Assembly (NCBI GenBank): GCA_016716005.1
Contig: JADJXE010000001.1
Coordinates: forward strand, 3,440,521 to 3,504,520
Length of the DNA: 64,000 bases
From: Acidimicrobiales bacterium
GTDB lineage: Bacteria; Actinomycetota; Acidimicrobiia; Acidimicrobiales; JADJXE01
Reading direction: 5' to 3'
Below, one piece after another: positions 12,344-20,723 of the stretch. The position numbers and the translations under genes were made by a program. Each line of letters starts with the position of its first letter. Position 1 is the first letter of the stretch. The notes beneath the pieces were generated by a model. That model saw nothing but the letters and a program-made list of their open reading frames with translations. It had not been told where the DNA came from and made no database searches.

Positions 12344-14710
12344 ATGAGGCTGCTCGAACTGCGTGCACCCGGCGACCCGCCGCTCCTCGTGCCGCTCCAC
12401 CCCCGTGTCACCGTGGTGACCGGGCTCACGCCAGCCGAGCGCGCTCGGCTGGTGGACGCCCTCGACACCCTGCGCACGACCCGTGGGGCGGGGCTGGGCG
12501 GGGTGGTCGAGGCCCACGGTGTGCTGTTCGACCTGGCGCCCGTCACGCTCGACCTGCTCGACGTCCCCGCCGACCTCGACCTGGTCGTGCGGGCCGGCGA
12601 GCTGCCCGGAGCGGTCGACGCCGAGCGCGACCGGGCCCGCGCCGCGCTCGAGCGGGAGGTGGCCGAGGCCGTCGCCCGCCAGGAGCGGGCCCGGGGTGCG
12701 CTGGACGAGGCGGGCGAGGCCCGTCGCGCCGCCGAGGCCGCAGCAGCCGCCCCCCCACCGTCCCCGGGAGCCACGGGTCGGGCCGCCGAGGCGGCCTCGG
12801 CGGCGCTGGCGGGTCTGCGCGCCCAGCTCGAGCGCTGCCGGGCCGATCGGGCCAGGGCCGAGGCCTCCCTGCTGGGTGCCGAGCCCCCCGCCGACGATCC
12901 CGCCGCCGCCCGCGCCGCCCTCGTGCAGGCCGAGGCCGACGTCACCAGGCTCGAGGCGGAGCTGGCCGAGGCCCGCCGCGAGCTGGCCGCGCACGACGAC
13001 GCCGCGCTCGCCGCGCCCGGGCCCGGGCCCGGCCCCGGTGAGCCGGCGGCCGCGACCGGGGCCGAGCTGGAGACCGAGCGCGGCGCCGTCGCCGCGGAGC
13101 TCGAGCGGGCCCGCTCCGCCGAGGCCGCGTCCGGGCCGGTCCGCGAGGCCCTCGACGCGGTGCTGGGCGCGCGGAGCGGCCCCGACCCGGTGGCGGTCGC
13201 GGAGCTGGCCGAGGAGTGGCGGCAGCTGCTCGAGGCGGGCGATGGCGAAGCCGCCGATGTCGATCCGTCGGCCAGGCTCGAGGCGGCCCGGGCCCGTGCG
13301 GCCACGGCCGCCGGCGACGTGGCCGCCCTGGAGGGCGAGGTCCGCCCGGCCCGCATGACCGTTGAGGAGCGAGCCGCCCTCGACCAGGCCCACGAGGCCG
13401 TCATCGTCGCCCAGGAGCGGGTCGACCGCAGCCTGGTGAAGGGTCGTCCCCGGCGCGAGCTGGAGGAGGTCCGGCGCGTCGAGCAGGAGCTGCTGTCGCG
13501 GTTCGGCTTCGGGTCGTACAGCGACTACCTGCTCAGCGGGTCCATGGTGCAGACCGATCCCGCCGCCGAGTTCCGCCTGGCGACGGCCAAGGGCGAGCTG
13601 GCCTCGGCCCAGGAGGAGCTGGACGCCCTGCTGGCCGGGCCGGCGCCGGGCGGCGAGCTCGCCCGGTGGCGGGCCGACCTCGAGGCCCGGACCGCGGCGC
13701 TGCTCGGTCACGACCCCGGCCCGGATCCCCTGGCAGCGCTGACCGACACCCGCCGGTCGCTCGAGCAGCACGAGGCCGAGCTGGCCGACACGCTCCGCCG
13801 GGCCGGCGCCGGCCCGTCCGACGGCGACCCGGTGGCTGCGGCCAGGCTCTGGCTGGGCGAGCGTGACGCGGCCCGCTCCGTGACAGAGCTCGAGGCCGAG
13901 CTGGCGGCCCTCGACCGGCGGGCCGCAGCGCCCCCACCCGCGCCCGTGGCCGGCCCTTCGCCCGACGAGCAGGCGCGGGCCGCCCTGGTCACCCGGATCG
14001 CCGCCCTCGAGGTCTCGCTGGACGAGCAAGAGGCGGTGCGGCGCGAGCTGGCGGCGCGCGTCGGCCGGCCCGACCGGTCGGGCTGGGGCCCGAACGTGGT
14101 GCCGGGCCCGTGGGTGACGGGTGGGCCACCCGGGCCCCCGCCCGCAGAGCCGGCGGCAGCCGACGAGCGGATCGCCGCGCTCCAGGCTGCGGTGGCCGCC
14201 GAGGCCGAGGCGACGGCCACGCTGCGCGCCGCCGAAGCCGATCTGGCGCCCCTCGCCGGAGCAGCTGCCGCCGGCTCGCCCGGCCGGGCGGCGGGCGAGC
14301 GGTCCGATCCCGCAGCCGAGCTGGCGGCGGCGCTGGCGGCCGAGGCCGGTGCGGCGCGGGTGCTGGCCGATGTCGCAGCCGTGCGCCGGGCGGTGGAGGC
14401 GCAGCTGGAGGAGCTGCGCTCGCTCCCCGCGGAGGTCGAGCCGGTCGAGGCGGAGGACATCGAGTACTACCTGCTGACGCGCCTCGCAGGGCAGCGGGGG
14501 GTGTCGTACGCCGGCTCCGCCCCGCTGGTGATCGACGACATCCTCGGCGTGCTCGACGCCGTGGACGTGGTTCGGGTGCTCGACCGGCTCGAGCGGATGG
14601 CCGACTCGGTGCAGCTCGTCCTGCTGAGCGACCGCCCCGAGCTGGTGGGATGGGCCAAGCGGCTCCCGGCCGACCGGGCCGCGCTGGTCGCGGTGCGGGC
14701 GGCGGCCTAG
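12344..14710 (+). CDS. SMC/RecF-like coiled-coil protein with a degenerate ATPase head
   Basis: Starts at ATG 12344. The N-terminus MRLLELRAPG...RVTVVTGLTPAERARLVDAL is an SMC-type head start without a P-loop. About 600 aa of A/E/R/L coiled coil follow. The C-terminus ...APLVIDDILGVLDAVDVVRVLDRLERMADSVQLVLLSD is Walker-B-like. Confidence 0.7.
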   Translation: MRLLELRAPGDPPLLVPLHPRVTVVTGLTPAERARLVDALDTLRTTRGAGLGGVVEAHGVLFDLAPVTLDLLDVPADLDLVVRAGELPGAVDAERDRARAALEREVAEAVARQERARGALDEAGEARRAAEAAAAAPPPSPGATGRAAEAASAALAGLRAQLERCRADRARAEASLLGAEPPADDPAAARAALVQAEADVTRLEAELAEARRELAAHDDAALAAPGPGPGPGEPAAATGAELETERGAVAAELERARSAEAASGPVREALDAVLGARSGPDPVAVAELAEEWRQLLEAGDGEAADVDPSARLEAARARAATAAGDVAALEGEVRPARMTVEERAALDQAHEAVIVAQERVDRSLVKGRPRRELEEVRRVEQELLSRFGFGSYSDYLLSGSMVQTDPAAEFRLATAKGELASAQEELDALLAGPAPGGELARWRADLEARTAALLGHDPGPDPLAALTDTRRSLEQHEAELADTLRRAGAGPSDGDPVAAARLWLGERDAARSVTELEAELAALDRRAAAPPPAPVAGPSPDEQARAALVTRIAALEVSLDEQEAVRRELAARVGRPDRSGWGPNVVPGPWVTGGPPGPPPAEPAAADERIAALQAAVAAEAEATATLRAAEADLAPLAGAAAAGSPGRAAGERSDPAAELAAALAAEAGAARVLADVAAVRRAVEAQLEELRSLPAEVEPVEAEDIEYYLLTRLAGQRGVSYAGSAPLVIDDILGVLDAVDVVRVLDRLERMADSVQLVLLSDRPELVGWAKRLPADRAALVAVRAAA

Positions 14711-15408
14711 TGCTCCCGCTCGAGGTGCGGGCCAGCGCCGACGCCGCATCGTTGGCCGCCGCCGCCGCCCACCTGCTGGCCGTCGAGCTCCGCGGTGCCG
14801 TGGCTGCGCGCGGGCAGGCGACGATGGCCGTGAGCGGCGGCACCACGCCCTGGGCGATGCTGGCCGAGCTGGTCCGGTGCGAGGTGCCCTGGGAGGCCGT
14901 CCACCTGTTCCAGGTCGACGAGCGCGTCGCCCCCGACGGCGACGCCGATCGGAACCTGACCGCCCTGCAGTCGGCGCTGCTCGACCGGGCGCCGATCCCG
15001 CCCGAGCACGTGCACCCCATGCCCGTCACCAGCCCCGATCTGCGGGCCGCGGCGGCGGCCTACGCCGACGAGCTCGCCGCCGTGTGTGGCGAGGGCGGCG
15101 CGCTCGACGTCGTCCACCTCGGCCTGGGCGACGACGGGCACACCGCGTCGTGGCCTCCCGGCGATCCCGTGATCGACGTGACCGACGCCGACGTCGCCGT
15201 CGTCGGGCCCTACCGGGGTCACCTGCGCCTCACCCTCACGCTGCCGGTGGTGAATCGGGCCGTCCGGGTGCTCTGGCTGGTGAGCGGGGCGGCCAAGGTG
15301 CCCGCCCTGCGGGGGCTGCTCGACGGCGACCTCGCCCTGCCGGCCGCGCACGTGCGGCGGGCCGCCGCCGTCGTGCTCGCCGATCGTGACGCGCTGGGCG
15401 AGCCCTGA
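14710..15408 (+). CDS. pgl: 6-phosphogluconolactonase
   Basis: GTG 14710 overlaps the previous TAG. MAVSGGTTP, FQVDERV and LGLGDDGHTASWPPGD are Pgl/DevB signatures. Confidence 0.85.
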   Translation: MLPLEVRASADAASLAAAAAHLLAVELRGAVAARGQATMAVSGGTTPWAMLAELVRCEVPWEAVHLFQVDERVAPDGDADRNLTALQSALLDRAPIPPEHVHPMPVTSPDLRAAAAAYADELAAVCGEGGALDVVHLGLGDDGHTASWPPGDPVIDVTDADVAVVGPYRGHLRLTLTLPVVNRAVRVLWLVSGAAKVPALRGLLDGDLALPAAHVRRAAAVVLADRDALGEP

Positions 15409-15537
15409 GCGGACGCGAGATCACGGTCGAGCGATCGGGGCGTCAGGCGTACGATGCAATCGGGGCCCGGGGACCCACCGGTCGCCGATCCCCGTCGAGG
15501 GCTCCGGGCCGCGCCGCCCGGGGCGGAGGAGGGAGCC

Positions 15538-16659
15538 ATGCCCGTGATCAGCGAGGATGCGGTCCGCGAGCTCGCCTCTCTGAAGGGGGAGAACGGGCCG
15601 GTCACGTCGTGCTACCTCGACGTGGACGGCAGCCGGTACCTCGGGCACCACGACTACCAGCGTCAGCTCGACCTGATGCTGCGTCGGGTCCGCTCGAAGC
15701 CCGGTCTGGGGTCGGCGGTCGCCGCCGATCTCGACCGCATCGAGGCCCACGTCCGGCGCGGCGTCGAGCGGGCGCACGTGCGGGGGCTCGCGATCTTCGC
15801 CTGCTCGGCCGACGGGCTGTGGCGGGTGTTCGAGCTCCCCGTCCCCGTCTACAGCCAGATCGTGGTCAACCACAGCCCCTACGTGCGTCAGCTCGAGCTG
15901 CTCGTCGACGAGTACGAGCGCTTCGGGCTGCTGCTGGCCGACAAGCAGCGGGCGCGGATGTTCGTGTTCGAGCTGGGCGAGCTGATCGACCGCAGCGAGC
16001 TGCTCGACGAGCTGCCCCGCGAGTTCGACGACAACCGGGGGCACTTCTGGAAGACCCACCAGCAGAGCCAGCTCGACGAGGCGACCCTCCAGCACCTGCG
16101 GCACGCGGCCGCGGTGGCGTTCCACGTCTTCCAGGGGAACGGCGGGTTCGATCGCTTCCTGCTCGGCGGCACGCCAGAGGTCACCGGCGACCTCGAGCGC
16201 CTGCTCCACCCGTACCTCCGGGAGCGGCTCGTCGACCACGTGCAGGTGCCGGTGAACGCCTCCCTCGACCAGATCCGCAGGGCCGCCCACGAGGCCGAGG
16301 AGCGGGTCGAGCGCCGGCGGGAGGCGGAGCTCGTAGCTCGCCTGCGTGACGCCGCGGGAGCCGGCCGCAAGGGCGTCGCCGGCCTCGATGCCACGCTCAA
16401 GGCGCTGGTGCAGCGCCGTGTCGAGTACCTGCTCGTGTCGCAGGGCTTCACCGCTCCGGGCTGGCGCTGCGAGGCGTGCGGCCATCTCGGGATGTTGGGC
16501 CGCGCCTGCCCGGGCTGCGGCGAGCAGATGGCCCACGTGGAGGACGTGGTCGAGGAGGCCGTCGAGGAGGCGCTGGCCCAGCACTGCAAGCTCGAGATCT
16601 GCGTGGGCAACGCCGACCTCGACGTGCTCGGGCGCATCGGCGCCCTCCTGCGCTTCTAG
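15538..16659 (+). CDS. bacterial eRF1/Pelota/Vms1-like (baeRF) protein with a C-terminal Zn-ribbon insert
   Basis: ATG 15538 follows ggaggaggga. The N-terminal ...GPVTSCYLDVDG and the ~370-aa three-domain layout look like baeRF-type proteins, from memory. Contains CxxC-x9-CxxC (CEACGHLGMLGRACPGCG). Confidence 0.65.
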   Translation: MPVISEDAVRELASLKGENGPVTSCYLDVDGSRYLGHHDYQRQLDLMLRRVRSKPGLGSAVAADLDRIEAHVRRGVERAHVRGLAIFACSADGLWRVFELPVPVYSQIVVNHSPYVRQLELLVDEYERFGLLLADKQRARMFVFELGELIDRSELLDELPREFDDNRGHFWKTHQQSQLDEATLQHLRHAAAVAFHVFQGNGGFDRFLLGGTPEVTGDLERLLHPYLRERLVDHVQVPVNASLDQIRRAAHEAEERVERRREAELVARLRDAAGAGRKGVAGLDATLKALVQRRVEYLLVSQGFTAPGWRCEACGHLGMLGRACPGCGEQMAHVEDVVEEAVEEALAQHCKLEICVGNADLDVLGRIGALLRF

Positions 16660-16670
16660 CCAGCCACCCC

Positions 16671-17630
16671 GTGCCTGCGCGGGCGGTCCCCACCGCCGGG
16701 CTCGACGTCGGCGGCACGAAGTGCCTGGGCGTCCTGCTGGACGCGGACGACCGGGTGCTGGTCGAGCGCCGGGTCCCCACACCCCCCGGCATCGACGCGC
16801 TCCTCGATGCCCTCGCCGAGCTGGTGGAGGCCCTCACCGCCGGGGGCGGCCCGGCCGGCGCGGTGGGGGTCGGCCTGCCCGGCCTGGTCGACGGGTCGGG
16901 CTGCCTGCGGTTCGCCGCGCACCTGCCCGGCGTGGTCGACGTGCCGTTCACAGCGCTGCTCGGCCAGCGGCTAGGCGTGCCCGTGGTCACCGAGAACGAC
17001 GCCACCTGCGCCACGGCCGCCGAGTGGCGACTCGGCGCCGGCCGGGGCGTCGACGACCTCGTGCTCGTCACGCTGGGCACCGGGATCGGGGCCGGCCTCG
17101 TGGCCGGCGGCGCGGTGCAGATCGGCGCGCACGGGTTCGCCGGCGAGCCCGGCCACATGGTCGTCCAGGCCGACGGCCCCCCGTGCGACTGCGGGGGCCG
17201 CGGGCACTGGGAGGTGTTCGCCTCGGGTCGCGGCCTCGGCCGCCTGGGCCGCGACGCCGCCGAGGCCGGCCGGGCCGACGCGGTGCTGGCCGCGGCGGGC
17301 GGGGAGCCGGACGCGATCCGCGGCGAGCACGTGGTGGCCGCGGCCCGCGCCGGCGACGCCGGGGCGGCTGCGGTCATCGACCGCTTCAGCTGGTGGATCG
17401 CGCTGGGGCTGGCGAACCTGGCGGACGTGCTCGACCCCGCCCTCTTCGTGCTGGGCGGCGGGCTGGTGGCCGACGCCGATCTCCTGCTCGACCCCGTCCG
17501 CGCTCACTTCCACGGGCACGTGATGGCCCAGACGCACCGACCCGAGGCCCCCATCGTGGCCGCGACGCTCGGGGAGCGGGCCGGGGCGATCGGCGCGGCG
17601 ACGGAGGCCCGGCGGGCCCTGTCGCCCTAG
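16671..17630 (+). CDS. glk: ROK-family glucokinase
   Basis: GTG 16671. GLDVGGTKCLGV, ENDATCA, LGTGIGAG and the ROK Zn motif GHMVVQADGPPCDCGGRGHWE. Confidence 0.85.
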   Translation: MPARAVPTAGLDVGGTKCLGVLLDADDRVLVERRVPTPPGIDALLDALAELVEALTAGGGPAGAVGVGLPGLVDGSGCLRFAAHLPGVVDVPFTALLGQRLGVPVVTENDATCATAAEWRLGAGRGVDDLVLVTLGTGIGAGLVAGGAVQIGAHGFAGEPGHMVVQADGPPCDCGGRGHWEVFASGRGLGRLGRDAAEAGRADAVLAAAGGEPDAIRGEHVVAAARAGDAGAAAVIDRFSWWIALGLANLADVLDPALFVLGGGLVADADLLLDPVRAHFHGHVMAQTHRPEAPIVAATLGERAGAIGAATEARRALSP

Positions 17631-18127
17631 CCCGGGTAGCGGGCGCGGGCGGCCCGGATCTCGCGCCAGGCCGCCTCGCGACCCTCGTAGCCAGCGGTCG
17701 ACGACGTCTTGTCGTGCTCGAGCATCTTGTAGACGTCGAAGAAGTGCTTGATCTCCTCGAGCAGCTGGGGCGAGAGGCCGCTGAGGTCGTCGATCCCGCT
17801 CCAGCGGGGCTCGCTGGGTGGGACGCAGATGACCTTGGCGTCCGGTCCGGCCTCGTCCTCCATCCAGAGCACGCCCACCGGGCGGGCCTCGACCCAGCAG
17901 CCCGGGAACGTCGGGTCCTCGAGCAGGACCAGGGCGTCGAGCGGGTCGCCGTCCTCGCCGAGCGTGTCGGGCACGAAGCCGTAGTCGGCCGGGTAGACGG
18001 TTGCGGTGAACAGGCGCCGGTCGAGCCGGAGCACGTGGCGCTCGTGGTCGTACTCGTACTTGTTGCGGCTCCCCCGGGGGATCTCGATCACGACGTCGAT
18101 GGTCTCGTCTTCCACGACCGTGATCAT
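17627..18127 (-). CDS. ppa: inorganic pyrophosphatase (family I)
   Basis: Starts at ATG 18127 (MITVVEDE...). IEIPRGSRNKYEYD, YPADYGFVPDTLGEDGDPLDALVL. Its stop overlaps the glk stop in the palindrome CTAG. Confidence 0.9.
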   Translation of the reverse strand: MITVVEDETIDVVIEIPRGSRNKYEYDHERHVLRLDRRLFTATVYPADYGFVPDTLGEDGDPLDALVLLEDPTFPGCWVEARPVGVLWMEDEAGPDAKVICVPPSEPRWSGIDDLSGLSPQLLEEIKHFFDVYKMLEHDKTSSTAGYEGREAAWREIRAARARYPG

Positions 18128-18189
18128 GCCGCCTGCCCGAGGGTGGGACCGCACCGGCGCCGCGGTGACCGCCGGGTAACCTCGACCAC

Positions 18190-19374
18190 ATGGAGTTCCG
18201 CCGCATCACGGGCCTGCCGCCGTACGTGTTCTCGATCATCAACAACCTGAAGATCGAGGCACGCCGAGCGGGCGCCGACGTGATCGACCTGGGGTTCGGC
18301 AACCCCGACATCCCCTCGCCCGAGATCGCCGTCGAGAAGCTCGCCGAGGCGGCCCGCAACCCTCGCAACCACCGCTACTCGATGAGCAAGGGCATCCCCA
18401 AGCTCCGCGAGGCCCTCGGCAACCTGTACCTGCGCAAGTGGGGCGTCGAGCTCGACACCGAGACGGAGATCTCCAACACGATCGGCGCCAAGGAGGGCCT
18501 CTCGCACCTCATGTGGGTGCTGCTCGGCCCCGGCGACGCCGCGGTGGTGCCCAGCCCCAGCTACCCGATCCACATCTACGCGCCCCTGTTCGCCGGCGCC
18601 GACGTGCGAGAGGTGCCGATGGGCACCGGTGGCGACTTCTTCGAGCGCCTGCTCGAGGCGTGGCAGCGGGGCTGGCCGCGGCCCCGGGTGATCGTGCTGT
18701 CGTTCCCGCACAACCCCACCACCGAGTGCGTCGACCTCTCGTTCATGCAGCGGGTCGTCGACTTCGCCCGCGAGCACGAGGTGATCCTCGTCCACGACTT
18801 CGCGTACGCCGACCTGGGTTTCGACGGCTACCAGCCGCCGTCGATCCTGCAGGCCGAGGGGGCCAAGGACGTGGCCGTCGAGCTGTACTCGATGACCAAG
18901 AGCTTCTCCATGGCCGGGTGGCGGGTGGCCTTCATGTCCGGCAACGCCGAGGTGATCGCCGCGCTGGCCAAGCTGAAGAGCTACCTCGACTACGGCACCT
19001 TCCAGCCCATCCAGATCGCGGCGACGGTCACCATGAACGAGGCGCCCGACTTCCCGAAGCTCGTCAACGAGGTCTACCAGAGCCGCCGCAACGTGCTCTG
19101 CGACGGGCTCAACCGCATCGGCTGGGAGATCGAGCGCCCCCAGGGCACCATGTTCGTGTGGGCGCAGATCCCCGAGCCCTACCGAGGCATGGGATCGCTC
19201 GAGTTCGCGTCGTACCTGGTGCGCGAGGCCGAGGTGGCGACCTCGCCCGGCATGGGCTTCGGCCCCGGCGGCGAGGGCTACGTGCGGTTCGCGCTGATCG
19301 AGAACGAGCAGCGCACCGGCCAGGCGGTGCGCAACCTCAGGCGGGTCCTCACCGAGCTCACCCCCCCGGCGTAG
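18190..19374 (+). CDS. class I PLP-dependent aminotransferase (AlaC/DapL-like)
   Basis: 394 aa. GFGNPD, SFPHNPT and the PLP-Lys motif YSMTKSFSMAGWR. Substrate not assignable. Confidence 0.85.
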   Translation: MEFRRITGLPPYVFSIINNLKIEARRAGADVIDLGFGNPDIPSPEIAVEKLAEAARNPRNHRYSMSKGIPKLREALGNLYLRKWGVELDTETEISNTIGAKEGLSHLMWVLLGPGDAAVVPSPSYPIHIYAPLFAGADVREVPMGTGGDFFERLLEAWQRGWPRPRVIVLSFPHNPTTECVDLSFMQRVVDFAREHEVILVHDFAYADLGFDGYQPPSILQAEGAKDVAVELYSMTKSFSMAGWRVAFMSGNAEVIAALAKLKSYLDYGTFQPIQIAATVTMNEAPDFPKLVNEVYQSRRNVLCDGLNRIGWEIERPQGTMFVWAQIPEPYRGMGSLEFASYLVREAEVATSPGMGFGPGGEGYVRFALIENEQRTGQAVRNLRRVLTELTPPA

Positions 19375-19978
19375 CCGCTCCCGGCGCAGGTCGGGTGCCG
19401 AGCAGGCCCTCGAGGCAGAAGGCGACGGCGCTGTCGGCGACCTCGTCGGCGGGCTCGCCCCGCTCGTGGAGGAACACCCGGGCCAGCTGGGCCGTGACGC
19501 CCAGCACCGCGTGGGCCAGCACCGCCGGGTCGTCGTCGCGGATGCGCCCCTCGACGATGCCCTCCTTGATGTGGCGCACGGCATCGCTCACCGCGACGTC
19601 CTGGCCCCGGCGCACGGCCGGGGCGAAGCGCTCCTCGGTCGCCGCGAACTGGAACAGGGTGACCAGCTGGCGGTGCTCGGCCCACCACGCCAGCGACGCC
19701 CGGATGCCCCGCTCGATCCGCACCACAGGGTCGGGCTCGTCGCCGATCGCCCGCTGCTGGCGCCGCCGGAGGTCGTGCTGCGCCTCCTTCAGCACCGCCA
19801 GGAGGAGGTCGTCCTTGCTCTGGAAGTACCAGTAGAAGACGCCCTTGCCGACGCCGAGGCCCTCCACGATCTCGGCCACCGACGTCGGGTGGTAGCCGCT
19901 CTCGGCGAAGCGCGCCGCCGCGTAGTCCATGAGCTGGCGCCGGCGCGCCTCGCCCCGAGCGGTGAGGCGGCGCTCCAT
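19358..19978 (-). CDS. TetR-family transcriptional regulator
   Basis: Starts at ATG 19978 (MERRLTARGEARRRQL...). HTH TSVAEIVEGLGVGKGVFYWYFQSKDDLL. Confidence 0.85.
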   Translation of the reverse strand: MERRLTARGEARRRQLMDYAAARFAESGYHPTSVAEIVEGLGVGKGVFYWYFQSKDDLLLAVLKEAQHDLRRRQQRAIGDEPDPVVRIERGIRASLAWWAEHRQLVTLFQFAATEERFAPAVRRGQDVAVSDAVRHIKEGIVEGRIRDDDPAVLAHAVLGVTAQLARVFLHERGEPADEVADSAVAFCLEGLLGTRPAPGAATPGG

Positions 19979-19985
19979 CGAGGGA

Positions 19986-20015
19986 ACCGTAGGCAGGCTT
20001 GACCGCGCGGTCAAG
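19986..20015 (-). promoter_or_regulatory. TetR promoter (-35 TTGACC, 17-nt spacer, -10 TACGGT; near-leaderless) overlapped by a perfect 18-bp palindrome operator
   Basis: CTTGACCGCGCGGTCAAG at 19998-20015 is a perfect palindrome. On the minus strand TTGACC (20014-20009) is followed after 17 nt by TACGGT (19991-19986), which lies 7 nt before ATG 19978. Confidence 0.55.
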
Positions 20016-20069
20016 AACCGGATCGGGGCCTCGGGGCGCGAAACCGCCTGTTCACACCGGCCGTCTACC

Positions 20070-20723
20070 GTGCACGGCGTGGAGCTGTTCGTGGTCCGGC
20101 TCTGGCTGCCCGACCGGCCCGGGGCCCTCGGGGCGGTCGCGAGCCGGATCGGCGCGGTGCGCGGCGACGTGGTCGGCATCGACATCCTCGAGCGGGGCGC
20201 GGGACGGGCCATCGACGAGCTGGTCGTCGGCCTGCCCGACCCGTCGCTGGTCGACCTGCTGGTCGCCGAGATCGGCCAGGTGGACGGGGTGGACGTCGAG
20301 GACGTGCGGCCCCAGGCCGGGCCCCTCCGGGATCACCGGCTCGAGGCGCTCGAGAGCGCGGCCCGGCTCGTCGAGACCAGCGATCCGCCCGACCTGCTCC
20401 AGTCCCTCTGCGCCGAGGTCCGCCGCGACTACGACGCCGACTGGACCGCCGTGGTCGAGGCCGGCGCCGAGCAGGTCCGCCAGTCCGCGGGCGATGCGCC
20501 GTCGGCGGCCTGGCTGGGCGCCTTCGTGCACGGGAGCCGCTCGTCGGAGGTCGTCGCGTCCGGCCAGGCCGGCCCCGAGGACGTCGTCTTCGCCGGGCTC
20601 CCGCGAGCGGGCCTCGAGCTCGTGGTCGGCCGCGACGGCCGGCCGTTCCGGGCCCGCGAGCGCCGCGAGGTGGCTGCGCTGGCGCGCATCGCCGACCGGC
20701 GCTGGGCCGAGCTGACCGGGTGA
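20070..20723 (+). CDS. ACT-domain-containing protein
   Basis: GTG 20070. FVVRLWLPDRPGALGAVASRIGAVRGDVVGIDIL is an ACT-like beta-alpha-beta start. The C-terminal ~140 aa are unassigned. Confidence 0.6.
   Translation: MHGVELFVVRLWLPDRPGALGAVASRIGAVRGDVVGIDILERGAGRAIDELVVGLPDPSLVDLLVAEIGQVDGVDVEDVRPQAGPLRDHRLEALESAARLVETSDPPDLLQSLCAEVRRDYDADWTAVVEAGAEQVRQSAGDAPSAAWLGAFVHGSRSSEVVASGQAGPEDVVFAGLPRAGLELVVGRDGRPFRARERREVAALARIADRRWAELTG

Follow-up and report, generated by a model that had tools for sequence, protein, structure and literature searches.

A baeRF family 10 protein with a predicted zinc ribbon in an Acidimicrobiales bacterium: a candidate A-site factor of the Balon type

We describe here a protein of 373 amino acids encoded on the plus strand, at 15538..16659 with the stop codon included, of a 64,000-nucleotide stretch of DNA, hereafter the window, from an Acidimicrobiales bacterium (GenBank assembly GCA_016716005.1, contig JADJXE010000001.1). 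The protein belongs to baeRF family 10, has the three-domain fold of the archaeo-eukaryotic release factors without their GGQ and NIKS motifs, comes from a clade in which the GGW[SA]Q motif of its relatives is lost, keeps a conserved ribbon in its C-terminal domain, and is encoded ahead of a ROK-family kinase gene in an order shared by its relatives. The reading that we favour, as probable though far from certain, is that of a non-hydrolytic factor of the ribosomal A site of the Balon type; the family, the fold, the loss of the glutamine, the fusion of a family member to the hibernation promoting factor (HPF) and the experimental precedent are the basis for it.

The baeRF-1 families were defined in 2019 by Burroughs & Aravind, who reported their gene-neighbourhood link to HPF and proposed that they are non-catalytic blockers of the A site; family 10 was singled out for a conserved Gln, and was considered possibly catalytic (PMC6514570). 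More recently, Helena-Bueno et al. (2024) found Balon on the ribosomes of Psychrobacter, where it parks in the A site during dormancy, and reported binding of Msmeg1130 and Rv2629 to the A site of M. smegmatis ribosomes, together with an inhibition of translation by both (PMC10901736). Balon is without NIKS and GGQ, and a β-hairpin inserted into its C-terminal domain contacts EF-Tu(GDP) (PMC10901736). In a 2026 preprint, a Balon homologue was described on hibernating Synechocystis ribosomes. No Acidimicrobiia taxa appear in the accessible part of the supplementary files of PMC10901736. These studies overtake two statements of the initial annotation of this DNA, which had held that the family was predicted only computationally and that no actinobacterial member had been characterised: Balon was seen on ribosomes in 2024, and Msmeg1130 of M. 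smegmatis, a member of family 10, was solved on the ribosome (PMC10901736).

Family, fold and gene of the 373-residue protein

The Pfam model PF18854 (baeRF_family10) matched residues 114-255 of the protein over its whole length, with a score of 83.5 bits, above the cut-off of 27.1, and an E-value of 2.2e-23. Scanned with the same model, Msmeg1130, whose sequence was reconstructed from printed alignments, scored 124.7 bits and is therefore itself a member of family 10. The top matches in NCBIfam were three 'ribosome hibernation factor' (Balon) models, with near full-length alignments, and the sole significant sequence match in the PDB was the Balon Msmeg1130, aligned end to end (E 2.7e-11 for the query sequence by itself, and 2.4e-21 when a profile built from 30 sequences was used); at E ≤ 0.01 this profile picked up neither the Balon of P. 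urativorans nor Rv2629. Judged by these comparisons, the protein is a homologue of the Msmeg1130, Rv2629 and AOC03_06830 factors and an equivalog of none of them.

The AlphaFold2 (AF2) model, built on an alignment of homologues, consisted of three domains, with a mean predicted local distance difference test score (pLDDT) of 86.9. When it was compared to the PDB by Foldseek, the ribosome-bound Msmeg1130 (8v9l_z) ranked first, with a template-modelling (TM) score of 0.79 and an E-value of 2e-26. The Balon of P. urativorans and Rv2629 scored 0.67 each (E 1e-18 to 3e-16), aRF1 and eRF1 about 0.5 (E 2e-20 to 1e-14), with their C-terminal domains also matched, and Pelota/Dom34 0.26-0.41 (E 1e-8 to 1e-11). 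There were 48 PDB matches at E ≤ 1e-3, and the 48 best-ranked entries were all Balon, aRF1, eRF1 or Pelota/Dom34. The three-domain, release-factor-like architecture proposed by the initial annotation is thus upheld both by the Pfam search of the baeRF families and by the structural comparison, in which Msmeg1130 is the best match and aRF1/eRF1 and Pelota are matched as well.

The arrangement is that of an aeRF1 protein, as delineated by AF2 and Foldseek: an N-terminal domain, a middle domain of RNase-H fold and a Pelota-like C-terminal domain. The N-terminal domain (residues ~1-116; 15538..15885, plus strand), delimited by the AF2 secondary structure, has near-invariant VTSCYLDVDG and NHxP segments; Y26, L27, D30, G31 and P114 are invariant among orthologues, and the pattern S-x-Y-[LF]-[DN]-x-D and the Pro are common to Msmeg1130. 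The middle domain (residues 114-255; 15877..16302, plus strand) was assigned by the PF18854 match and by profile alignment to the middle domain of eRF1. The C-terminal domain, similar to Pelota and eRF1_3 (16303..16656, plus strand), ends in a conserved ADLDVLGRIGALLR[FY] and was recognised by AF2 and by Foldseek matches to the C-terminal domains of eRF1 and aRF1.

Msmeg1130 (PDB 8v9j/8v9l) is the known protein closest to the one studied here: both are actinobacterial members of baeRF_family10, align over their full length with a TM score of 0.79, have neither NIKS nor GGQ and carry an insertion at the same site of the C-terminal domain. They differ in that the insertion is Cys-less in Msmeg1130 and a full Cys4 ribbon in the window protein, in that His186, near-universal in the bulk of family 10, is not shared by Msmeg1130, and in their gene context, hypoxia and stress loci for Msmeg1130 and a kinase-containing housekeeping block in the window. 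The Balon of Psychrobacter urativorans (8rd8/8rdv/8rdw) and Rv2629 of M. tuberculosis (8v9k) have the same three-domain fold, with weak full-length NCBIfam matches and 14-19% identity. The window protein also shares with aRF1 and eRF1 a homologous three-domain architecture and a middle domain alignable by profile, but these factors have GGQ and NIKS, neither of which was found in its sequence; an absence of both is the rule for Balon. The score with the aRF1 model TIGR03676 was 25 bits, below the cut-off of 234.7. Termination in bacteria uses RF1 and RF2, so the window protein is not a primary release factor.

Among the alternatives, the one that survives best is a role in rescue or recycling without catalysis, like that of Pelota/Dom34, in which the protein would enter the A site of ribosomes that are stalled or vacant and, together with a GTPase or ATPase, favour subunit splitting or reactivation over storage; we regard it as unlikely, though not negligible. 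Superfamily and fold are the same (E 1e-8 to 1e-11), and the loop of the middle domain is Gln-less as in Dom34; moreover, the strong conservation and the fixed, housekeeping-like locus over 370 species genomes would suit a constitutive quality control at least equally well, and an ArsA/Get3-like ATPase is conserved upstream of the gene in its relatives. However, the structural match is much weaker (TM 0.26-0.41, against 0.79 for Balon), the N-terminal domain is of another type, and no Pelota loop A was identified in the window protein. The partners of Pelota/Dom34 are Hbs1 and ABCE1, and we know of no bacterial equivalent of either, which also counts against this possibility. Finally, the characterised family 10 member inhibits translation and is passive in the A site (PMC10901736).

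The gene itself is well defined. Long open reading frames occur in all six frames of this high-GC window; this one is nevertheless a real gene, because more than 2,000 homologues of its product were retrieved at E ≤ 1e-5, with orthologues of ~371 residues at 57-66% identity. The protein is 100% identical to IPM45_16780, from an Acidimicrobiales metagenome-assembled genome (MAG). Its N-terminus, in the translation of 15538..16659 on the plus strand, is MPVISEDAVRELASLKGENGPVTSCYLDVDG; a longer in-frame start is available at 15454, but the starts of the orthologues correspond to 15538. The sequence GGAGGAGGGAG (15525..15535, plus strand), similar to a Shine-Dalgarno element, lies ahead of the start, with 8 nt from the end of GGAGG to the ATG, and most of the orthologous loci likewise have GGAGG ahead of the start codon. 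The 373-residue frame and the strong ribosome-binding site of the initial annotation are thus confirmed.

The loop at the GGQ position and the diversity of family 10

The equivalent of the GGQ loop is DELPREFDDNRGH, residues 157-169 (16006..16044, plus strand), as located by AF2, profile alignment and hhalign, and it is without a Gln at the catalytic position. These residues are disordered in the AF2 model, with pLDDT below 50 at 161-166. In the profile alignment GRGGQ of eRF1 falls on residues ~165-169, and GGQ on ~167-169. The Gln-rich stretch FWKTHQQSQLDE, which the initial annotation had taken for a loop replacing GGQ, comes after it, at residues 170-181 (16045..16080, plus strand), where it forms the beginning of a predicted helix (170-200).

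The columns of this stretch were counted in 119 orthologues. Val is the most frequent residue at Q175 (51/119), at Q176 Gln is found in 40/119, and at Q178 (nt 16069-16071) His occupies the column in 105/119 and Gln in 7/119; the conserved His is shared by a sister clade (xQRH), to which we return below. Part of the Gln-richness is therefore, from the alignment, a rare substitution at an otherwise conserved His position. No GGQ or GGx[SA]Q was present in any of the 119 orthologues, and the column of Lys172 holds K or R in 106 of them. The Gln-rich stretch exists as annotated, but a conserved catalytic motif does not, and as an analogue of GGQ it fails on both conservation and position. The initial annotation had itself named non-conservation of the Gln loop as one half of what would speak against its proposal, and this is what was found.

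To place this loop in the family, one representative was taken per 50%-identity cluster (4,884 clusters at E ≤ 1e-3) and 124 diverse representatives were examined. Besides the loop type of the window clade, LPRxxDDxGxx[WY]x[KR]D, family 10 contains the type HDQGGW[SA]QxR[YF]QRH, a longer, Gln-free GGW type and a short VDTxxELG type. The HDQGGW[SA]Q loop is of the GGxSQ kind found in VLRF-1 proteins, and GGx[SAGT]Q occurs in 28 of the 124 representatives.

The sister clade came from a metagenome scan with the GGW[SA]Q clade and consists of proteins from Actinomycetota MAGs (loci L090-L129; P0148, P0280-P0398), 35-39% identical to the window protein; compared by hhalign, the two clades align with 100% probability and 39% identity over 374 columns. 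They have in common the zinc ribbon and the gene order GT4, SRPBCC, ArsA-like, small open reading frame, baeRF, ROK. In many loci of the sister clade the stop of the small upstream frame abuts or overlaps the start of baeRF, whereas the window has a spacer of 129 nt. The sister clade keeps HDQGGW[SA]Q and matches the Pfam models acVLRF1 and eRF1_2; by contrast, the window clade has K or R at the position of the Gln and has lost these matches, and the window protein itself gave no match with the Pfam models acVLRF1 and eRF1_2 or with the NCBIfam model acVLRF1. The name assigned to the sister clade by the Prokaryotic Genome Annotation Pipeline (PGAP) is 'Vms1/Ankzf1 family peptidyl-tRNA hydrolase'.

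In the hhalign alignment of the two clades, QGGWsQ is paired with R167-G-H-F-W-K172, so that the candidate catalytic Gln of the family corresponds to Lys172 in the window protein; Q176 aligns with the second conserved Gln of the sister clade (xQRH). The window clade is monophyletic and Gln-less in a crude neighbour-joining tree, which cannot polarise motif loss versus gain. Relics of the motif, HDQGG or DDGGxW, persist in some of its members and, together with the ungapped match, on our reading of the sequences, of the family 10 loop to the GGQ loop of eRF1, they suggest that GGW[SA]Q decayed in the lineage of the window protein.

These results bear directly on a second alternative, an active peptidyl-tRNA hydrolase of ribosome rescue, in which a Gln of the Gln-rich segment would position water on stalled ribosomes, as in aRF1 and Vms1. 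It draws on the mention of family 10 as possibly catalytic for its conserved Gln (PMC6514570), on the 28/124 representatives with GGx[SAGT]Q and the motif retained by the sister clade of the same synteny, and on the three Gln at 175-178 of the window protein, of which Q176 aligns with a conserved Gln. The conserved Gln in a GxuQ or GGxSQ loop of restricted length that marks Vms1/VLRF1-type and family 10 hydrolases is, however, absent: the motif is found in none of the orthologues, its Gln is replaced by K/R in 106/119, the Gln residues of the window protein are not conserved and sit in a predicted helix, and, unlike the sister clade, the protein has no acVLRF1 or eRF1_2 Pfam match and only 25 bits with TIGR03676. 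Since the Gln stretch is not conserved and the candidate catalytic Gln is lost, the protein would be expected to lack hydrolase activity, and we judge this alternative very unlikely.

Five oversized or extended family representatives were inspected for fusions, and a kinase was joined to none of them. One of them, P0226 (751 aa), joins a Gln-less, ribbon-bearing family 10 baeRF (residues 2-369) to a long HPF (Ribosomal_S30AE + S30AE_C); it is a single representative and possibly an artefact of gene calling. Taken as a single case, it may represent a 'Rosetta stone' link of family 10 to ribosome hibernation. Two further proteins, P0230 and P0214, combine a GGWSQ loop with an N-terminal zf-HC2, a zinc finger of anti-sigma type, which suggests from the domain content that some members of family 10 are wired to sigma-factor control.

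The C-terminal ribbon and a possible mode of action

The C-terminal domain holds the segment CEACGHLGMLGRACPGC (16468..16518, plus strand), with the four cysteines C311-x2-C314-x9-C324-x2-C327, inserted at the site of the EF-Tu-binding β-hairpin of Balon. Its two CxxC knuckles, its short β-hairpins and its conservation identify it as a predicted zinc ribbon; in the AF2 model the segment forms short strands with pLDDT ~90. The full Cys4 set is kept in 111/119 orthologues, C311 and C324 in all 119, and 99 of the 124 diverse family representatives have all four, in agreement with the CxxC-x9-CxxC motif of the initial annotation. The ribbon weakly resembles those of bL32, PriA and rubredoxin type. 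When the C-terminal 97 residues alone were compared to the PDB sequences, generic ribbons only (PriA, bL32, RNA polymerase, rubredoxin) were retrieved, at E ≥ 0.15, and no aRF1.

Both single-sequence and profile alignments placed the ribbon region (residues ~305-334) on the Cys-less segment 306-333 of Msmeg1130, YVGTVGADGSLYADGEIAPHSH, which corresponds, from the published description, to the EF-Tu-binding hairpin. This fits the view of Burroughs & Aravind, who interpret the insert of two strands in baeRF-1 proteins as a zinc ribbon that has degenerated in this position, and who describe the Pelota-like C-terminal domain of aeRF-1 as often holding an inserted zinc ribbon (PMC6514570). As the ribbon is aligned to the Cys-less hairpin of Balon, it appears to be an ancestral feature of the superfamily, kept in the window clade and degenerate in the characterised Balons.

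A mode of action can be outlined by analogy with Balon. The protein, three-domain and tRNA-shaped, would attach to the A site of the ribosome and perform no peptidyl-tRNA hydrolysis. Its N-terminal domain would be placed at the decoding centre, the Gln-less loop of the middle domain would reach the peptidyl-transferase centre on its outside, and the zinc ribbon would be presented where the β-hairpin of Balon contacts EF-Tu(GDP), possibly docking on it in the same way. Hibernation would be the outcome, with ribosomes silenced and protected in a reversible manner. A ribosome-binding role is likely, and the extension of A-site binding from the characterised Balons to this protein is by analogy.

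Several observations weigh against the assignment to the Balon type. The scores with the three NCBIfam equivalog models were all under the cut-off, namely 73.5 vs 480 bits for NF052288 (MSMEG_1130), 36.2 vs 320 for NF052289 (Rv2629) and 33.7 vs 330 for NF052287 (AOC03_06830), and the identity to Msmeg1130 in the Foldseek alignment is only ~22%. The HP motif of Balon (decoding centre), its lasso loop (around A2602) and its bL27 trap could not be mapped on the window protein, which has N-H-x-P at 111-114 and the disordered loop at 157-169, as the text of the paper gives these motifs without residue numbers. The gene is part of a housekeeping block (GT4, SRPBCC, ArsA-like, kinase, aminotransferase, PFK) and not of a stress operon, and no HPF gene was found within the 64-kb window. 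Finally, the nearest relatives outside the clade retain GGW[SA]Q and are named peptidyl-tRNA hydrolases by PGAP, so that the ancestral activity of the orthologous locus may have been catalytic.

We put forward tentatively a more speculative extension of the Balon-type reading, which we consider improbable as a whole: the clade would descend from a Vms1-like, Gln-bearing peptidyl-tRNA hydrolase, of which it would be an orthologue 'de-catalysed' in recent times and now working as a zinc-dependent factor of the Balon type, and its co-transcription with the glucokinase, conserved for long, would tie ribosome silencing to the supply of carbon or energy. If so, a single orthologous locus would hold catalytic and non-catalytic states, and the hairpin with which Balon docks on EF-Tu would have the zinc ribbon as its ancestral form, dependent on metal.

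Gene neighbourhood and upstream region

In a scan of one genome per species, 370 genomes had a relative of the gene and the best 80 loci were taken, in which neighbouring genes were marked by tblastn. Nearly all of these loci were labelled Acidimicrobiia/Acidimicrobiales, Iamiaceae, Microthrixaceae, Rhabdothermincola or unclassified Actinomycetota, with two under the label Acidobacteria and one under 'bacterium'. No second copy of baeRF was present within the 64-kb window.

The gene directly downstream (16671..17630, plus strand) starts with GTG 11 nt past the baeRF stop and encodes a ROK-family sugar kinase (Pfam ROK, E 3.4e-65), a probable glucokinase that is probably co-transcribed with baeRF; its start agrees with the public gene call in the same organism. 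The best NCBIfam model of the kinase was 'ROK family glucokinase' (ROK_glcA_fam), with 210.6 bits, under the cut-off of 260. With one locus counted per species, 69 of the 75 Acidimicrobiia loci with enough downstream sequence have ROK as the next gene on the strand of baeRF, at a spacing of usually 4-130 nt; the coupling to a ROK kinase proposed by the initial annotation therefore holds well beyond this organism, and the link is old and real. The six remaining loci have baeRF with no ROK gene directly downstream; in four, the block around it is preserved and the aminotransferase gene comes next.

The conserved order is GT4 glycosyltransferase, SRPBCC, ArsA-like ATPase with an HSP20-like domain, small open reading frame, baeRF and ROK; beyond ROK it continues with, sometimes, a pyrophosphatase on the opposite strand, then the aminotransferase, a TetR gene, an ACT-domain gene and PFK. 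In the window, the inorganic pyrophosphatase lies at 17627-18154 on the opposite strand and the class I/II aminotransferase at 18190-19374, followed by a TetR regulator, an ACT-domain protein and, further on, PFK. Sugar-phosphate and energy genes are thus gathered at 16671-20723 and beyond, in an order conserved across Acidimicrobiia (L004, L006 and others).

The pairing raises a third possibility, that the protein works off the ribosome and assists the ROK kinase in carbon signalling or in the metabolism of sugars, for instance as a zinc-ribbon regulator. In its favour, ROK stands next to baeRF in the same orientation in 69/75 Acidimicrobiia species and in the 35-39%-identical sister clade, with PFK and pyrophosphatase genes nearby. 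We nevertheless hold this to be highly improbable, because the adjacency can be explained by descent of a block conserved as a whole, six loci keep baeRF without ROK directly downstream, distant family 10 genes are not beside ROK, no fusion to ROK was found among the five oversized or extended representatives, HPF being the sole metabolic or ribosomal partner identified, and each of the three domains of a ribosome factor is conserved and intact. As the pair is inherited within the whole block, the kinase link is weak evidence for a functional tie, and a regulatory meaning of the co-transcription is conjectural.

Upstream, the window differs from its relatives. The 6-phosphogluconolactonase gene pgl (14710..15408, plus strand; TIGR01198, 165 bits vs a cut-off of 124) is the immediate neighbour, preceded by a gene (12344-14707, plus strand) for a 788-aa low-complexity protein rich in Ala, Arg, Glu and Pro, possibly coiled-coil, with no Pfam or NCBIfam match; these two stand where the relatives have the ArsA-like ATPase and the small frame of ~99 aa. 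The initial annotation was correct in placing pgl directly upstream, but among the loci examined this adjacency is confined to the window and to L001, which comes from the same organism; the other 87 (L002-L089) lack it. The survey thus bears out the ROK neighbour and not pgl, and we rejected pgl as part of a conserved unit.

Hsp20 genes adjoin some family 10 genes, in L009 and L058 (upstream and divergent in both), and in L134, L146 and L150; among the more distant family 10 genes, three are beside Hsp20. Hsp20 is not next to the window gene. Balon genes are likewise associated with Hsp20 genes (PMC10901736), which counts in favour of a connection of family 10 with hibernation.

The 129-nt spacer upstream of baeRF holds a candidate -10-like hexamer of TAnnnT form, TACGAT (15450..15455, plus strand), 82 nt ahead of the ATG, within a degenerate copy of CCTAC[CG]ATCGG at 15447-15457. 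This element came solely from the comparison of orthologous upstream regions; a scan of 14600-18300 for sigma-70 promoters and intrinsic terminators found nothing. The 11-mer is matched at 10 or more of its 11 positions upstream of the gene in 26 of 79 Acidimicrobiia loci; the expectation from other parts of these loci is 0.0006 such matches per 170 nt. It lies 5-130 nt upstream of the baeRF start in loci L010-L089, and its TAnnnT core resembles the actinobacterial -10 box; from its conservation, it may be a promoter of the baeRF gene's own or a regulator site. Across the rest of the window there were four one-mismatch matches to the 11-mer against 1.8 expected, so that, not being enriched, it gives no sign of a regulon in the window. 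No RNA family was found in a permissive Rfam scan of 14500-18300, hence no riboswitch or leader.

Taken together, the window protein is an ordinary member of a known and recently characterised family, and no new principle is involved. As an annotation, 'Balon-type (baeRF family 10) ribosome-associated factor' should replace 'hypothetical protein'. The points worth note are the ribbon kept at the EF-Tu site of Balon, the occurrence of one clade with the Gln and one without it at the same syntenic locus, and the conserved kinase neighbour. Family 10 emerges as mixed, comprising Msmeg1130, a proven hibernation factor with no Gln and no Cys, the GGW[SA]Q clades, which are possible hydrolases, and the window clade, Gln-less and ribbon-bearing. 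The Gln-bearing sister clade in the same gene order offers a clean comparison of hydrolysing and A-site-blocking family 10 proteins, and the ribbon-bearing window clade makes the role of the ribbon in EF-Tu binding testable. For a little-studied class of Actinomycetota, the conserved pairing with ROK gives a modest hint of a way in which hibernation could be linked to carbon status.

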